64,000 bases of DNA from Lytechinus pictus (taxonomy: Eukaryota): contig NC_087251.1 in assembly GCF_037042905.1 (NCBI RefSeq), positions 24,554,001 through 24,618,000 on the forward strand, in the 5' to 3' direction. The notes below the pieces were generated by a model. That model was not told where the DNA came from. It ran no database searches and was given only the letters and a program-made list of their open reading frames with translations. A program made the position numbers and the translations under genes. Positions 6,993 to 44,083 of the stretch are shown here, piece after piece (position 1 is the stretch's first letter; each line of letters opens with the position of its first letter).

Positions 6993-7097
6993 ATTCATGG
7001 ACCTATCCACGGAGGATTATTCTATTGTCACTGGGGGTGCTGAGCATTGTCACAGCACCCCCAGTAACAATAGATAATCCTCCGTAGATATATAGGT
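6993..7097. mobile_element. Small palindromic (foldback) element interrupted by the Penelope insertion; its right tip resumes at 10703-10723
   Basis: ATTCATGGACCTAT...GGGGGTGCTG pairs with CAGCACCCCC...TAGATATATAGGT plus CCATGAAT (10716-10723). The same CATGGACCTA/TAGGTCCATG termini occur at about 22288-22320. Confidence 0.7.
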
Positions 7098-7120
7098 TCT
7101 CTCATCAGGCTCTCTCATCA

Positions 7121-9008
7121 CTCAAAAACAGGTCCGACATCATCATCAAGCCTGCAGACAAAGGATCAGCCGTCGTTGTTATGGACCGCCAGCAGTACAT
7201 CGATGAAGCCATGAAACATCTCAATAATCGATCTCACTATGCACTCCTCGATTCTGACCCTACTTGTAATTTCTCCCTACAGATCAAATCGACACTGAAT
7301 GACATGAAAGAACACGAGCATCTCTCTGAGAAGGCCCACAAATTTCTCTCCCCTACTAATGCTAAACCTGCCCGCTTCTATCTCCTCCCGAAGATCCACA
7401 AACCTGCCAACCCCGGTCGACCCATCCTCTCAGGAAATGGTTCCTCAACAGAGAACATCTCCCTTTTTGTTGATTACCACATTAAGCCCCTTAATTGTCT
7501 CACGTGCACCCTCTTACATCCACGACACTCCAGACTTTCTCAGGAAACTAAATGACATCAAGGACCCGAGACTGCGATCATCGGCACTTTCGATGTTTCT
7601 TCACTGTACACCAGCATTAATTCCCCACGACGAAGGTATCCAAGCATCATGTGAAGCTAGCCTTGGCCGCCAGTGGCCATTCCAGTCCCCCCATATCCGA
7701 TATCAAATCTCTGATGTCTCATGTACTAACAAAAAACAGCTTCACATTCATGGGCAAGCACTATACCTACAGATATTCGGTACAGCAATGGGCATCCGGA
7801 TGGCTCCTTCATTCGCCTGTCTCTTCATGACGAAGCTGGAACAGCAGATGTTAGATTCAGCCCCCTGTCGCCCATGGATTTGGTGGCGTTACATAGACGA
7901 CATTTTCTTCATCTGGACCAGAGTGAAGACAGCCTCCATACATTCATTGACCACATCAATTCCTTCCACAGGACCATCAAATTCACTTCTGATTTCTCCC
8001 AACAGGAAACCCACTTCCTTGATGTTACAGTCCAGAAAAAGTATAATGGTATCACCACTACCCTATACTCTAAACCCACAGATACCCACCAGTACCTCCA
8101 CTCATCCAGCTGCCACCCCCGTCACTGCAAAACCGGCATCGCTTACAGTCAAGCCCTCAGACTTCGCCGTATCTGCTCCGAGGACCCTGATTTTTCCTTC
8201 CATGCCAGGAATTTGCAGAAACATCTCTGTGCCAGGGGCCACGGGCCAGGGCAGCTAGTCCAACTGGCAATTAACAAAGTTCGTTCTCTCCCCAGATCTG
8301 AAGTTCTCAAACCAAAAAGTGACAAGGAGACCACCGACAGAATACCGCTTGTGACCACCTTCCATCCCAATCTACCCCCTCTCCGCAAAATCCTGTTTGA
8401 TAACCACCACATTTTACCAAGGAGTTGGAAGCTCCTTGATTTTACACACTTCTGATCGTCTCCAACAGGCCGTTCCCGATACTCCCCTTCTAGCATACCG
8501 ACGCCCACCGAATCTCAGGGACCTCATTGTTCGTGCTGAAGTGCCCTCCCTCACTAACCATTCTTCTCCCATACAACATGGCACCTTCAAATGCACCAGC
8601 AACAGGTGCATCATATGTGAAATACACCTTCACGAGGGCGATACTTTCACCAGCAACTCTACCAGCCTGTCTCACCAAATCAAGGGCAACATCACATGCA
8701 CTACCACTAATGTTGTATATCTCATCACTTGCAGAGTTTGTAGGGTACAATACATAGGGGAAACCAAGACCACACTCAAGAAACGATTCTACGGGCACAG
8801 ATCCACCGTCAACACAGCAAAGCTGGACACTCCAGTTGGCCGCCATTTTAACCTCCCCAACCACTCCATCACTGACATGATGCTACAGGGCATCGAATCT
8901 TTAGGTACCCGTCCTGACTCAGTCCGTACTAGCAGGGAGAAGCTCTGGATGAGACGACTTCGCACCACCCAACCTCATGGCCTGAACATCCAAGAGGGGA
9001 ACGACTGA
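7121..9008 (+). pseudogene. Frameshifted PLE reverse transcriptase + GIY-YIG endonuclease ORF
   Basis: Motifs are spread over several frames: IIIKPADKGSAVVVMDR, FYLLPKIHK..GRPI, GTAMG..MAPSFA, WWRYIDDIF, FLDV, YSKPTD..YLH.SSCHP, Cys-rich linker CTSNRCIIC, NVVYLITC..C..QYIGET...RF.GH, and REKLW..RLRT..PHGLN. Confidence 0.9.
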
Positions 9009-21468: not shown

Positions 21469-21642
21469 GAAAGTCAAAAAGGGGCCTAAGCTTTCGATCC
21501 TAGCAGAATCTTCGTCGGAGGCAAAATGACAAACATATAAAGTGGAACAACCATAATATAGACCACAAACAAGCTACAGCAACACTAGAAACAAGGAGAC
21601 AAAAGGGGCATTAGTGAGTAGAGAAGACCAATCAGGTTAGTG
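21469..21642 (-). mobile_element. Short 5'-truncated copy of the PLE 3' end, including the hammerhead motif (21473-21530)
   Basis: Reverse complement of 10527-10702 with one substitution and one 2-bp indel seen by eye; same 3' terminus ...TTTTTGACTTTC. Confidence 0.92.
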
Positions 21643-22672
21643 TCAGGGTAAACATCACATTTTACGTTGAAGATGTAAATAATATCAGTAAATATAATGG
21701 AGCTGGTGATGGCAGTTCGGATTGACAATAAAGATTGTGATGTATGTCGTTGATATCATAATTAGTGGCTAGTAGAAGAAAATCTGAATGGAAATTTGAG
21801 TTGAGATGATAAAGAAAGATAATGATGATTATCGTAATGGTAATAATGGTCATGGTGATTGTTGTTTGTGATGATGATGGTGGTGGTGATGATGCGGATG
21901 ATGATGATAACGATTTAAAATCTGATAACAAACAAACTATTTAATTCCAAAGCGGAGCAATATCTAGTGAAAACTGTTGTACGTCATCATGAATATGCAG
22001 TTGGTGGGTTGATGATGTTTTGTTCCCACTTTCCTTTTTTCTTATGTTATAGGCCTAGCATAAAATCATATCATATTTTCATAAATGATTGTGTGTGATA
22101 TCTCTCCCTTGCAACAAATTAAAATGGCAGCAATGATTATCTTACACATTTAATCCCGCGTTTTCTTTTTTTCTATTTAGAGGACGAATTTGAATAAATA
22201 TAATGTCATGTAATAAAATACAAAGTAATAATTGGGGATGTGACAGAAGCTTGCTCGTTGCATATTCATGAAAACATGCATAAAACCATGGACCTACTAC
22301 TCTGCCCCTGTAGGTCCATGATAGAACTCAGTGTTTCACCGAAATAATGCGAAACTTTGCTATTCCTTGTCCGATTTGATGAAATTTTCTTTGTCTGATT
22401 TTACTTCATCTATACTCAGCACGGAGTCCCCATTTAATTTTTTTTTATATTTATCAAAATGCTTATAAAAATTCCCGGGTAAAAAATATGCGACGAAATT
22501 TGCAAAATCCAATGGGTAAACAAATTATTTTTTTTTTGCAAGTTCCTAAACGTACAAAAGGTCATCTCTCCCCTGGGTATTGGTTAGAAACCATTTTCTT
22601 TCGATTCTTTTGTTTCCAATCGGTCTCTCCCTTTCTTATCATCAGCAATATCTTCCGAGAGCTGATATTAAA

Positions 22673-22849
22673 TGTGTGTGTATTTGAGTTTTGTCAGACG
22701 TGTATCAATCAGATATGATTATTTACGTCTGGGACCGACCTTTAACGTCACCATCCGAAAGACGTGACCAGGGCTCGAACCTCGAACCTCTGCATCAATT
22801 TGTAACTTCCCCACAGCTTGGATTACAGGCGCACGCCACAACGCCTAGT
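22673..22849 (-). mobile_element. SINE-like element with a 7SL/Alu-domain-like head, B-box, conserved-looking core and (CA)n tail
   Basis: Minus strand reads ACTAGGCGTTGTGGCGTGCGCCTGTAATCCAAGCTGTGGGGAAG...GGTTCGAGGTTCGAGCCC TGGTCACGTCTTTCGGATGGTGACGTTAAAGGTCGGTCCC...CACACACA. Confidence 0.7.
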
Positions 22850-22965
22850 TGTACGTCATATGCATACAGACATCTCTGATAAATTTAATAAACGAGTCTA
22901 ACGAGAGGTGTAGAAAAAGTTTCGAAGGCCGATCATCAACGCAACGCACATGTACAATGCGTCAC

Positions 22966-22979
22966 GTCACTATGGATAC
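22966..22979 (+). promoter_or_regulatory. RFX X-box
   Basis: GTCACTATGGATAC fits the X-box consensus, about 110 bp upstream of the ATG at 23088; overlaps a CRE-like TGCGTCACGTCA. Confidence 0.65.
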
Positions 22980-23087
22980 GCACTATACAGATAGTGCAGA
23001 GCTAGAGAAGGGGGTAGCGCGCGAGCAACAGGTGTATTTTTATACCAGTCTGTTTTTGGCCAGGAAAATCTAAAAAATCTGTTCAAA

Positions 23088-24094
23088 ATGACGGCACAAT
23101 GTATGGGGAACTTTGGAGCCCACAAATGGCGTTATCCAGAATTTGTTGCTGAGCGATATGGCCGTTCAAATAGATCTGAGCCAGAAAGTCAACCCACTAA
23201 ACAAGATGATGTTGCGATCCATGGGGTAAGCGATCAGACCGTGTGGGTCAACAAGCGGTACATCCCGACCGATCTCCGCAGCACCGCCCCGGTACCTCGC
23301 CACAAGCTGCTAGCTCCACGTCGTCTGCCTCAGGCCGAGAGACACTGGGTGCCGTTGGGAGAGGCCTCTCTTCGACAGTTCTCAAGGGCAATGGAAGAGA
23401 GAGAACTCTACGTTTCTCAACCGAGTTCGAGGTCTGAAGATTGGTCTACCCTTCGACAAATACTGCCATCAAAAGGACTACCATTAAGACATAGCCCACC
23501 GAACTGGGGTACGGGCAGTGCCTATGCCCCACCAATGATCGGAGCAAGACAAAGGCGGTTTCCTCATATAAACAGTCCAATGACAAGGTATGAACTATGA
23601 TTAACTGACTCTTTATATTTTATAATTTAATCAATCTTACTTCATAGTTTGATAATTGGCTAATCAATGAATATTCTGAATTAATTTTTGGTATACTATA
23701 CTCTATAGGAAGAAGCGCTGCTTCAAGATACTAAGTTATAAAACATTGCAACAAAAATCTAATTCTATTTCATAATTAAGGGGAGCCCTATTTTTCCACA
23801 TAATATACAAAGATGAAAGCACAATGAAGGTTTTTGCCAAAAGTATTTCAATCATTTCACAAGTCAATATGAATCTGTCTCTGAGTTAAGTAAAATTTCA
23901 AAATTCCATTATGATCTATTTGAGTTTCAGAGTGTTTTAGTTTATGATTGTCACACAAACACTAATATACCATGATTCATTATTTTGCTGGTGGTAAAAG
24001 TGAGTTGATATTAAAACCACTTTCCCCTGTTTTTCCTCTTATTAGATATGTGGATGACATGCATACAACGCACAAACTTTTCAAGCTTCATTAA
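23088..24094 (+). CDS. 182-aa protein, probably ciliary/sperm axonemal, with a TEX49/SPMIP11-like C-terminus
   Basis: Exons 23088-23587 (AG|GTATGA) and 24046-24094 (polypyrimidine + TAG), in phase. C-terminus RFPHINSPMTRYVDDMHTTHKLFKLH* resembles, from memory, the TEX49 C-terminal motif. X-box upstream. Gene structure is solid; family identity is tentative. Confidence 0.8.
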
Positions 24095-41000: not shown

Positions 41001-42514
41001 GATCAAAAGGAGAAACTATATGCAAGGGAGAAAATGAATGTAGGCCACGTAGTGAGTTTTTGAGTGTAGCATAAAAACATTTTACTTTTGTTTTCAACAT
41101 AAGTTTTCCATGCATTCTTTTGTTGTTTGATGAGGAATTGTAAACTCAAACTTTTTTTCCTCAAGAATGTCCTCAGCTAAGTCACTCTTAGCTAATTTTT
41201 TTATCTTGATTCTGGCCCTTGAGCAGGCTTGTATCACAGACAGATTGCCAAGATTTGGGAATTGCTTCGTTATCACCTATAACATGAAAGTACCCATGTC
41301 CCATATGCATGCCTGCAGAAATTGAATATTGTATGGGGAGAATATTCATGTTTTGATGGCTTGACATTTAAGTGCAACCTTACGATTAGGGTCATAAGGA
41401 TAAAATGTCTCCCCTAAGGATGTCAGCAACCAAACCCAGACCTACTCTCAGTGTGGCTAATGCTTGATATGAACTCGTGAAAAAATGAATAAATAAATTA
41501 AGGAAGATATTTTGCCAGAAGATATTCCTTCACTTCCATCGTACTATTTGATGTTGACTACCTACTGGGAGAACGAGATCTGAGATGACTTTTAAAGTGC
41601 TGTATTTGGTTCTTTGTAATGTAAACCTATATTGAATAAGGAAATATGCCAATTAATAGATTATCTTTAAAAAATAGGGTCATAAAACTTACATATTCAT
41701 TCAGTTTTGTCTCACTTGTTAATACTGATCATCCCTAAGGAGAAATGGATCTCAGATTTGTTTTCAGTTGTTCAATTTATTGAAGAAATCTTGTGACCTG
41801 GGGCTCGTAACACAAAACTTAGCAATGATCGTGGAACATATTTCTATGACTGATTAAATGGCCAACACTGTACAATCAATCGTGAAAATTAAGCGTATGA
41901 TCAATTGCTAACTTTTGTGTTACTGAACTCTGATGGAGTTCATTGAGTAAGGTTGTAAAAAATGTTTAAAAAAAGATTTGTGAACTTCTAAGAAGTTAAA
42001 AGAGCACTCACAAGTTTCTTTTAAGTATAAAAATGGATCACTGCATTACTCTGATCCAGACGTGACTTTCTACAAATCTTTCAATATTTGAGACAAAAAT
42101 AAAATCAACTGTTCTGAATACATATTCTCCATGTTAATGCAAACTTCTTAGGCCTGTGCATCATTGTGCAGCTGGAAAAGCATCTTGTTTGAATTCTGGT
42201 ATCTCTTGGGGCTGTACCACTTACCATGCCTGGTTCGATGCCATTCTTGAGTTTCAGTTTATTGCTGAGTAGGGAAAGGGGTTGCTGCTTTGCTTTCTGC
42301 TTCGGTGTTCCATTGTTTCCTGTTCCACTTCGACCCTTGATCTTATTCTGAACGCTGAGTAGAGCCGAGATGAAAGAGTTCTTGGTCTCCTTCTCATAGT
42401 CTAGGTCCTCTCTCAGGGCCAGTTGCTGGACCAGAACCTCGGAGTATTCTTTGACGGTTTGGTCCAACTCTTCTAGGACTTCGTTGAGTTGTACCAGTGA
42501 CATGTTCTTCAGTT
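35096..42514 (-). CDS. FEZ2: Fasciculation and elongation protein zeta (FEZ1/FEZ2/UNC-76 family), last four coding exons; 5' exons not identified in the window
   Basis: Exons 42514-42225, 40592-40520, 35870-35805 and 35157-35096, GT-AG and in phase: LKNMSLVQLNEVLEELDQTVKEYSEVLVQQLALREDLDYEKETKNSFISALLSVQNK...|YLTTRIPYHKDAPPDLETLRIITK|ILKAIDEDSKEVPDLLTNYILK|VLFPAGADPSQASSLYVAQR*. Matches the FEZ coiled coil and C-terminus; FEZ1 versus FEZ2 cannot be resolved. Confidence 0.93.
35567..35712. mobile_element. Short Harbinger-like MITE in a FEZ intron
   Basis: GGTCCCGTAACACCAAGGTTAGCGATT / TTGCTAATCTTTGTGTTA with CAG on both flanks; relatives at about 41800-41930 and 14355. Confidence 0.65.
37010..37035. 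repeat. (TA)n microsatellite
   Basis: Directly visible. Confidence 0.9.
37404..38075 (-). mobile_element. RTE-clade LINE 3' fragment, degenerate
   Basis: Minus-strand peptides FLGAII..DMKSRMNKAR..LNKVWRS..TKVNLFKTLVRPV.LYG.ETW, WNWIGHVLR and KTTWRRTV; (TAG)n tail at 37404-37426. Confidence 0.85.
39655..40239. mobile_element. Kolobok-like MITE, family B
   Basis: TTAA|AGGAGAATGAAACCTT ... AAGGTTTCATTCTCCT|TTAA with long TIRs. Confidence 0.88.
41800..41930. mobile_element. Short Harbinger-like MITE, same family as 35567-35712
   Basis: GGGGCTCGTAACACAAAACTTAGCAATGATC / GATCAATTGCTAACTTTTGTGTTAC. Confidence 0.6.
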
Positions 42515-44083
42515 CTGTTCAAGATAAAAGATAAAACAGATTAAACATTTGAATTAAGCCAAGAACATATTTTTAACAGAGCCTCCAAAATATTAAATTA
42601 TGGCTTCTGTTCATCAAATTTTGAATCAATCTAATGATATGGTGTTTAATTTTGTAAAAATAATTCAATATTTGTTAAAATAAGGAGTCATAGATAATCT
42701 GCTCCATTAATACTAAATCACATGAAGAAGAGACTGTTATTATAATAATCATTACCAAAAATAGCCAAGGTTCATGTGCATTCCACAATATGGTTCATGT
42801 ATAGGGCTGGGAATAAAAAATTGGTCAATTAAGTATATTTCACATTTAAACCTGAATAATTAGTGGAAAACAAAGATGTAGTTGTGGCTCTTATCCCAGT
42901 ATGGTAGTTTGTGTTGATCACCAGTGAATACGTAACTATCATCATTAATCATAATCATGTTACTCTCAATACGGTTTAATATCTAGTTAATTACTATAAT
43001 CTCTTTATATAGAGAGATAAGATACATTTGGCTGTCCACCTCTTGTCTTTTACCTGTCTCTGTCTTTGTGTCTTTTTTTTCTGTCTGTCTGTCTATCCCC
43101 TTCTCTCTCCCTCCCTATGTCTATCTTTTAGTATCTGTCCACATCTTCTATCACTCGCTCCCCCTCTCTCTGATTATCTGTTGTCTGCTCATCTCTACCT
43201 ATCTCTTTTTCTGTCTATCTATCTATCTCTCTCTCTCTCCCCTCCAGTCTTGGTGAGTTACCTGTGAAGACAGTGCAGTCATCCTACAGTCATTGCACTT
43301 AGTGTAATGAAACCATAATCAATGGAGCACCCATCATCACATCCATCTTCATCTCAAACAAATGCCATCTTCTCACCTAACCCACTAAATACATGCATAT
43401 GTCATACCAGCTTCCATCAATCAATACATAGGTAGCACAGTACCGTCTCTTCTTTCTTTCTTTCATCTCGTTCTTACAGGAATCTTACTTCTATTGTTTA
43501 TTTCTTGTTCTTTTTTATTATTTTTATTTTGGTTTGCGCTGTCTTCCTTTTGATCTGTTTTCTTTTAATCTATAGTAGATGACTTCCACTTTCATCTTCC
43601 TTTATACTGGAACTCTTGATTTACTTTCCTCTGGTCTCTCTTTTCCAATACTTTGTTATGTTATCTTTAATCTCTCTCTCTCTCTCTCCCTCACACCCAC
43701 ACAAACTCACATATCTTTTGCACCTTACATCTTTCATTTGATGTAGAGCTGTCTCGACAGACGGCATTACTCATTGATACTGAAAATATATATGCTTACA
43801 ATTATAAATAATAAATGGCTTCTTAAAAACGTAGTGTAAAATGTACAAGAAACAACGGCAAGGGTAAGTACCTTTAACAAGTGGAACGCCTCAGGCAGTC
43901 TCGCCTGCATTACGCTATTTCATATAGCAGCAGTGCTAACTTTGAAAACTACTATAAAATCATCATTCACAAAAACACCATTCATATACTGACATAATAC
44001 CATGTTCATTGACCATAGATGGCATTTGAACGGTGAATTAAGACTTGTCAACTACACCAATGTCCACATTTCATTCACTATAT

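Follow-up and report, generated by a model that had tools for sequence, protein, structure and literature searches.

Alu, the most abundant repeat of the human genome, is a short interspersed element (SINE) derived from 7SL RNA, the RNA of the signal recognition particle (SRP). In the parts of the literature available here, 7SL-derived SINEs are recorded only in supraprimates, the shrew mole and hagfish (PMC7245038; bioRxiv 10.1101/2024.08.25.609555). In a survey of 2024, the SINEBase group put the number of independent origins at three, all of them vertebrate (bioRxiv 10.1101/2024.08.25.609555), and Kojima (2018) places such SINEs in Euarchontoglires only (PMC5786205). According to the same survey, all described families also keep the 3' end of 7SL, which follows after a central deletion of ~180 nt (bioRxiv 10.1101/2024.08.25.609555). 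The hagfish family SINE1-1_EBu is a chimera of 7SL and an older tRNA-SINE and is moved by RTE (Kojima 2020, PMC7245038). Here we describe an element from a 64,000-nt stretch of sea urchin DNA (Lytechinus pictus, contig NC_087251.1, positions 24,554,001 to 24,618,000), which we call the window. Positions 22673-22849 on its minus strand are one complete, recent SINE insertion in a sea urchin genome, and the family to which this copy belongs is very probably a multi-copy SINE with a head taken from the 7SL RNA of its host. This is probably the first 7SL-headed chimeric SINE from an invertebrate.

SINE positions are counted on the minus strand from 22849 (position 1), L numbers are loci cut from the window's own 812-Mb assembly and C numbers are the contigs of that assembly. 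The window copy is ~177 nt long, and the family unit consists of ~170 nt followed by (CA)n. Read downward from 22849, the minus strand gives ACTAGGCGTTGTGGCGTGCGCCTGTAATCCAAGCTGTGGGGAAGTT, then the linker ACAAATTGATGCAGA, GGTTCGAGGTTCGAGCCC and GTCACGTCTTTCGGATGGTGACGTTAAAGGTCGGTCCC; an AT-rich 50-nt tail ending in AAACTCAAATA comes next, and (CA)4 at 22680-22673 closes the element. The strings quoted in an earlier note on this DNA are all present on the minus strand where it had placed them, and the duplicated B-box, hairpin core and (CA)n tail that it described downstream of the head are found at 22788-22771, 22768-22731 and 22680-22673. It was also right that the window holds a single copy and that no target-site duplication (TSD) is visible there. 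The copy sits in non-coding DNA, and the adjoining open frames have no Pfam match. Its parts are as follows.

22850-22852, minus strand: extra 5' bases ACA, which with A1C2 read ACAAC; a short form of the inverted extension seen in other copies, being the reverse complement of SINE positions 8-12
22804-22849, minus strand: head assigned to 7SL (SINE positions 1-46) by the match to the Rfam family RF00017 and by alignment to the genome's own 7SL gene L037
22789-22803, minus strand: linker ACAAATTGATGCAGA, with no significant similarity to 7SL and, in the searches made with it, in no other family
22771-22788, minus strand: tandemly duplicated B-box GGTTCGAGGTTCGAGCCC, with units GGTTCGAG-GTTCGAGCCC, the second of which fits the consensus GGTTCGANNCC
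22731-22768, minus strand: body core GTCACGTCTTTCGGATGGTGACGTTAAAGGTCGGTCCC, a predicted hairpin with a Deu/Nin-DC-type likeness judged by eye
22681-22730, minus strand: 3' tail, with the predicted stem-loop GACGTAAATAATCATATCTGATTGATACACGTC (22729-22697) followed by TGACAAAACTCAAATA
22673-22680, minus strand: (CA)4 microsatellite end, which varies from (CA)2 to (CA)13 among copies

The likeness of the minus-strand start to the 5' end of 7SL and Alu, including the UGU(A) turn, had been claimed in the earlier note and is confirmed by an Infernal scan of window positions 21500-24000 against all 4227 Rfam families. Metazoa_SRP (RF00017) matches 22757-22849 on the minus strand with 29.6 bits (E 3e-5) and is the sole match below E 1, and sister copies reach 34.9 bits (E 5e-6) with the same model. 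The next match in the scan is mir-1268 (E 3.2), an Alu-derived family. SINE bases 1-46 align to RF00017 model positions 1 to ~48, helices 2, 3 and 4 of the Alu 5' domain are paired, the UGUAAU turn is intact and ACU/AGU closes helix 2. One pair in helix 3 is non-canonical, and the same pair is found in the 7SL genes. Starting at 7SL +1, the head spans precisely the 5' domain of the SRP Alu domain; the A-box-like TGGCGTGCGCC lies within it.

A search of the assembly with RF00017 recovered seven full-length 7SL genes (272-283 bits) and 18 further short matches at 31.9-34.9 bits, a range in which this repeat also scores; all five of those cut out (L038-L042) are copies of the SINE. The 7SL genes start with ACCGGGCGTTGTGGCGTGCGCCTGTAATCCAGCTACTTGGAGGTCGGGG, and the gene at L037 starts with ACTGGGCG...CCAGCTGCTTTGGAAGTCGGGG. 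SINE positions 1-31 are identical to L037 in 31/31 bases and the whole 46 nt are alike at 91.3%, while the other six genes match over 31 nt at 96.8%, with one mismatch. U3 and the compensating A of its helix-2 partner are common to the SINE and L037 (ACU...AGU as against ACC...GGU), and the SINE carries the echinoid-specific GTTGTGGCGTGCGCC stretch instead of the Rfam consensus. Because the 31-nt identity, the U3/A compensatory pair and GTTGTGGCGTGCGCC match the genes of this genome, the head derives from the sea urchin lineage's own 7SL (SRP) RNA, and neither from a vertebrate Alu nor from a tRNA. Comparison with the species' own 7SL gene and of SRP with tRNA models on the head, both proposed earlier as checks, point the same way, with an RF00017 match and no tRNA match, and the own-species substitutions, including the U3/A pair of L037, support the independent origin that had been suggested. 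An older subfamily (L038, CCAGCTACGTGGGG / CCAGCTACGTGGGGAAGTT) is nearer to 7SL than the young one and is the one that gives 34.9 bits (E 5e-6). In the young subfamily, which includes the window copy, the helix-4 loop has lost 2 nt by deletion compared with 7SL.

The element forms a dispersed family of at least ~1,400 copies in both orientations. Copies were counted over the whole assembly with 43-nt patterns at up to three mismatches, the reversed pattern serving as control. The body core gave 1362 matches (684 forward, 678 reverse) and the head/linker junction of the young subfamily 432 (218 forward, 214 reverse), with 0 matches in either control, so the element is not the single-copy sequence that would have undone the earlier proposal. 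With a 188-nt query, 1560 first-look candidates were obtained, and scoring 40 of these yielded 43 matches of 93-100% identity on contigs C1-C19. Among the fetched loci, 64 full-length copies show 78-100% identity, in a sample that is skewed to the best matches.

Similarity to 7SL had been reported to end after about 45 nt, and it stops at ~base 46. The element keeps only the 5' domain of 7SL, up to that base. When the sequence after the head was compared with full 7SL genes, 421, 435, 51 and 55 of 500 shuffles scored as well or better, and the linker shows no significant similarity to 7SL. An Alu-like reading of SINE positions 47-90, B-box included, as diverged 7SL was rejected, as the local alignment scores lie within the shuffle distribution. 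The second B-box unit agrees exactly with GGTTCGANNCC, the B-box consensus. The box is duplicated in most copies, old and young, and is present as a single unit in L058, L059, L074 and unit 3 of L008.

The core of the body comprises 38 nt and forms a hairpin in the minimum-free-energy fold. Its exact 10-mer TTTCGGATGG occurs once in the 31,098-character supplement of PMC4824008, in BivaMD-SINE1, an element with Meta and Deu domains (PMC4824008); Nin-DC is part of Deu (PMC4758252). Over GTCACG..TCTTTCGGATG..AC.TTAAA..GGTCCC, ~30/41 columns agree between the two elements when compared by eye only. As a lead from this comparison, the shared segment may represent the start of the Deu/Nin-DC part. 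In BivaMD-SINE1 the Deu/Nin-DC-type core likewise lies directly 3' of the B-box module (PMC4824008 supplement), but it can be compared with the urchin core over ~40 nt only, and the urchin SINE lacks the Meta domain and the remainder of the Deu domain. The tail stem-loop is present in both the minimum-free-energy and the centroid fold. A stem-loop tail is the usual shape of the recognition site of a stringent long interspersed element (LINE), and the predicted stem-loop together with (CA)n is presumed to be such a site for the reverse transcriptase of a partner LINE.

The earlier note had further proposed that the 5' half of the Alu domain was fused to a tRNA-SINE body. A 7SL head on a non-7SL body is what we find. 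The perfect B-box and the core, which is like a domain of tRNA-SINEs, would fit a tRNA-SINE partner, but neither tRNA homology nor a tRNA-headed relative was found. No tRNA family matched at E<=10 in the Rfam scan, ARAGORN gave none in the same region, and the sister copies had no RF00005 match at E<=1 with Infernal. Among 30 loci picked by the tail there was no parent with a tRNA or any other head, and every full-length one bears the 7SL head. The linker pattern with non-7SL sequence upstream gave 15 scattered genome matches only, and no other family.

Two sequences seen alongside these searches share short stretches with the SINE. One is a single-copy fragment (L024:289-340) with a duplicated GTTACAACTTGATGCAGAG, which matches the SINE linker over 31 nt at 90% and could have come from a decayed SINE or be left over from the sequence that supplied the linker. 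The other is a different, ordinary tRNA-type SINE (…GGAGCGTTGTGGCCCAGTGGATTAGTC…GGGTTCGAATCCCAGCC…) on the plus strand of L011 (~560-760) and L055 (~1770-1960), whose head has the 10-mer GCGTTGTGGC in common with the 7SL/SINE head. This shared GCGTTGTGGC may be a coincidence, or a microhomology that could favour recombination.

Compared with the described systems, the urchin SINE resembles SINE1-1_EBu in being an independent, non-mammalian birth of a 7SL-headed SINE, in being a chimera with non-7SL modules of SINE/LINE type and in being young (PMC7245038). Both have microsatellite-type tails, (AAC)n in SINE1-1_EBu and (CA)n in the urchin, which would imply a stringent non-L1 partner, and both have copy numbers in the low thousands (2363 copies and at least 1362 core matches, respectively; PMC7245038). 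However, SINE1-1_EBu keeps the 5' and 3' ends of 7SL around a central deletion, with the Alu fold preserved, while the urchin element keeps the 5' 46 nt only (PMC7245038). In addition, the tRNA-headed parent and RTE partner of SINE1-1_EBu have been identified, whereas our searches of the urchin genome found neither (PMC7245038). The hosts differ too, that of the urchin SINE being an invertebrate deuterostome, unlike the hagfish.

Alu, B1 and Tu of supraprimates and Urop of the shrew mole also start at 7SL +1 and have helices 2-4, UGUAAU and the A-box-like element in the same segment (bioRxiv 10.1101/2024.08.25.609555). In contrast to the urchin SINE, with its foreign B-box, core and tail, these elements are wholly 7SL-derived, from 5' and 3' parts, and end in poly(A); their B-box evolved from 7SL sequence and their mobilisation by L1 needs no specific 3' sequence, whereas the urchin tail is a stem-loop with (CA)n (bioRxiv 10.1101/2024.08.25.609555). 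The placing of a new 5' module on an existing body and tail is likewise described for SINE3 (5S rRNA), SINEU (U1/U2 snRNA; PMC4494074) and LP-SINEs (LINE promoter heads; PMC4758252), the source of the head being 7SL in the urchin case. Functionally, the urchin element belongs among the 7SL-headed SINEs, although it lacks one trait of all described members, the retained 3' end of 7SL.

The identification together with the mechanism outlined here is, in our judgement, likely to be the best explanation as a whole. Judging from motifs only, RNA polymerase III (Pol III) would transcribe source copies from a composite internal promoter, in which the A-box-like element of 7SL (~+11 to +22) is combined with the foreign B-box (~+62 to +80), the two lying ~47 nt apart. 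As the sense strand contains no T4 run, termination would take place in the flanking DNA 3' of the element. The 3' stem-loop and (CA)n would be recognised by a resident stringent-type LINE, which would copy the RNA by target-primed reverse transcription, and integration would leave short or no target duplications and at times a snap-back inverted 5' extension. More speculatively, the head may in addition bind SRP9/14 and bring the transcript to ribosomes, a role suggested for Alu as well. Of the ways in which the chimera could have formed, two are most likely: a template switch of reverse transcriptase from an older SINE RNA onto 7SL RNA or the insertion of a SINE into a 7SL gene copy. When the 7SL upstream motif was used to look for a master copy, 14 genome matches were obtained against 12 in the reversed control; 7/14 are 7SL genes, and no convincing SINE locus was among them. 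We suggest only tentatively, as a possibility that we doubt more than we believe, that this is a so far undescribed, still-active 7SL-headed SINE lineage, born independently as the fourth of its kind and the first beyond vertebrates, in which a minimal 46-nt SRP9/14-binding 5' domain sits on a Deu/Nin-DC-type body with a stringent LINE tail and whose success depends on the head recruiting SRP9/14 and the ribosome.

Several observations weigh against this explanation. SINEBase asks for an interspersed element of at least 100 copies with at least 60% identity to tRNA, 5S rRNA or 7SL over at least 60 nt (PMC3531059). In dispersal and copy number the urchin element lies within these limits, but its 7SL similarity is short (~46 nt at 91-100%) and falls below the 60-nt overlap, though its 7SL origin is clear; this rule would leave the element unclassified as 7SL-derived, which could explain how it escaped notice. 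The element keeps no 3' part of 7SL, whereas all described 7SL SINEs do, and the full Alu-domain fold cannot form. The deletion in the helix-4 loop affects the young and most successful subfamily and would argue against strict selection for the SRP9/14-binding fold. Divergence over 18 copies is only mildly uneven (head 6.4%, body 11.3%), in a sample too small to speak for constraint, and the folding energy is unremarkable (z -1.2 for the whole element and +0.4 for the head). Tail patterns that exclude the SINE body gave 113 and 22 genome matches and no partner LINE with this tail: the 30 loci inspected among the 113 are all SINE copies. Two sites among the 22, with CGCCACTG as common upstream sequence, were considered as a partner LINE and rejected, since nothing further is alike when they are aligned and they look like rearranged SINE fragments. 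TSDs of at least 6 bp are present in 3/41 copies, as against 3% in shuffled flank pairings, and those of at least 4 bp in 22/41 copies, as against 31%. Finally, some copies lie in tandem arrays or larger duplicated units, and part of the copy number is thus due to DNA duplication.

Some of these points bear on the alternative that survives best, to which we give somewhat less than an even chance. It holds that the 7SL head is only a promoter and 5'-end module, supplying a start site and an A-box-like element and kept by historical accident, and that mobilisation needs the LINE-type 3' stem-loop alone, with no SRP9/14 or ribosome docking. The absence of the 3' half of the Alu domain, the changed helix-4 loop of the most successful subfamily and a head that is no more stable than shuffled sequence all fit this alternative, and for SINEs of the stringent type a 3' end in common with the LINE is generally sufficient (PMC5786205; PMC4824008). 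On the other hand, the retained stretch stops where the Alu 5' domain does, helices 2-4 are closed by ACU/AGU and UGUAAU is intact. The Alu 5' domain is the minimal SRP9/14-binding RNA. In addition, neither the 30 loci picked by tail nor the linker pattern search turned up a differently headed copy, and divergence is slightly lower in the head than in the body, which is a weak argument.

A second alternative leaves the biology untouched and concerns novelty. The family may be real and already catalogued in Repbase, Dfam or SINEBase, perhaps as SINE2 or 'unknown', in which case at most the 7SL reading would be new. Repeat surveys of sea urchin genomes exist, with SINE2-n_SP families of Repbase cited in PMC4824008 and PMC4758252, and automated repeat libraries exist for many assemblies. 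Nevertheless, we consider such a prior record rather unlikely, and there is a good chance that the family is undescribed so far. A literature search, which left Repbase, Dfam and SINEBase outside its scope, found no 7SL-derived SINE from an echinoderm and no paper on 7SL, SINEs and sea urchins together, and neither the head nor the core strings occur in any paper within it; prior publication, which the earlier note had listed as taking away novelty, was not encountered within that scope. The curators of SINEBase, in their 2024 survey, know 7SL SINEs only from supraprimates, hagfish and the shrew mole (bioRxiv 10.1101/2024.08.25.609555).

A third alternative, which we regard as very unlikely, is that the family is no retroposon but a repeat spread at the DNA level, with a 7SL gene fragment in it by chance; it could be a segmental duplication, a satellite unit or a piece of some larger mobile element. 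The mostly absent TSDs would fit it, and so would the copies found in arrays and in larger repeated units with identical flanks. Head-to-tail tandem arrays were observed at L008 (C19:10865243-10865951), with at least four units, and C2:17634222-17634604 holds three core matches at ~170-nt spacing; some members of the family spread in the manner of a short satellite. At no fewer than five loci (L039-L042 and C7:25357260-25357544), SINE dimers share the same 5' flank, and copies of the 'CTCGGGCGTAAAT' variant (L063, L070, L072), which have identical flanks, are clustered on C10 (0.05-0.44 Mb), C12 (7.8-8.3 Mb) and C16. These flank-sharing dimer and 'CTCGGGCGTAAAT' copies are embedded in larger repeated units. 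However, the flanks of the 30 best copies are mutually unrelated and spread over 17 contigs, and the orientation of the core matches is balanced (684 vs 678). The 5' boundary is sharp at (A)CTGGGCG, which is 7SL +1, the 3' end varies from (CA)2 to (CA)13, and nested 5' truncations are seen at L049, L062, L064 and L069 (4/30 loci picked by tail), with internal deletions in a few of the 30.

Two further features of the insertions can be set beside the proposed retroposition. A clear near-duplication of 12 nt flanks the copy at L038 (CTTATTCATCTT and CTTACTCATCTT). Inverted 5' extensions of at least 5 nt were found in 11/48 independent full-length copies and measure 9-15 nt in four; they are the reverse complement of SINE positions 8-22 over up to 15 nt, with examples at window positions 22850-22852 and in the 5' flanks of L002, L004, L012 and L025. 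Such an extension fits either a snap-back of the cDNA at the 5' end of the RNA or a hairpin-extended source transcript.

The weakest alternative, an ordinary tRNA-derived SINE (SINE2) whose head is 7SL-like by chance or convergence, could appeal to the perfect tRNA-type B-box in its T-arm-like context and to a core like a domain otherwise found in tRNA-headed SINEs, but is effectively refuted by the lack of any tRNA model match at E<=10 or ARAGORN match, by the 31/31 identity to the genome's own 7SL including lineage-specific bases (46 nt at 91%) and by RF00017 being the only significant Rfam family.

The 7SL genes themselves have a conserved setting. All seven (L031-L037) share the upstream motif GATATnTCCTTAATTTCGC at ~-31 to -1, with TTCG just before +1, and a genome search with this motif recovers all seven genes and nothing else convincing. 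Six of them (L031-L036) have a conserved B-box GGTTCGAGTC in a T-arm-like context ~20-50 nt downstream of the first T-run (terminator), followed by GGTGTC.. and a second T-run in otherwise diverged surroundings; L037 has no such B-box. In yeast, the U6 gene (SNR6) has an extragenic downstream B-box, and by analogy the downstream B-box may be part of the echinoid 7SL promoter. This B-box region was considered as the source of the B-box module of the SINE and rejected, as 7/17 unrelated B-box sites score equally well, in what is a small null set, and the likeness of the linker to the 7SL 3' flanks is no greater than at other B-box sites. Each of the three clustered 7SL genes on C10 has a SINE copy, 82-92% identical to the young form, that ends ~33 nt upstream of the 7SL start (L031:876-1049 and 1289-1466; L035:1293-1467; L036:1314-1467), and the SINE tail thus adjoins the 7SL promoter.

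Elsewhere in the genome and the window, the assembly encodes bindin (PF02084, 236.7 bits), for which the control genomes gave no match and which marks the host as an echinoid. At window positions 7088-9008 on the plus strand, a reverse transcriptase with a frameshift (weak RVT_1) precedes a GIY-YIG nuclease domain; this is a decayed Penelope-like retroelement. Among the exons looked at, the only clear host-gene exon is a FEZ-like one at 42105-42518 on the minus strand (PF07763, 87.8 bits). The retroelement and the FEZ-like exon are the recognisable features closest to the window copy of the SINE.

SINEs derived from 7SL are very rare in independent origin, and the echinoid case extends them to invertebrates. 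It constitutes a natural experiment in which the 7SL part has been trimmed to the Alu 5' domain and paired with a presumed non-L1, tail-specific partner, and it bears on whether 7SL heads succeed by SRP9/14 and ribosome docking or merely as Pol III promoters. If it is true that the success of the family depends on SRP9/14 recruitment, 7SL would owe its merit as a SINE head to the 5' domain alone, with neither L1 nor the remainder of the Alu fold being needed. With more than 1,300 copies, many of them ~99% identical, the family is a likely source of insertion polymorphisms. It is also a likely source of annotation artefacts in sea urchin genomes, such as false SRP RNA or 'Alu' calls, as Rfam-type scans match the family at 30-35 bits.

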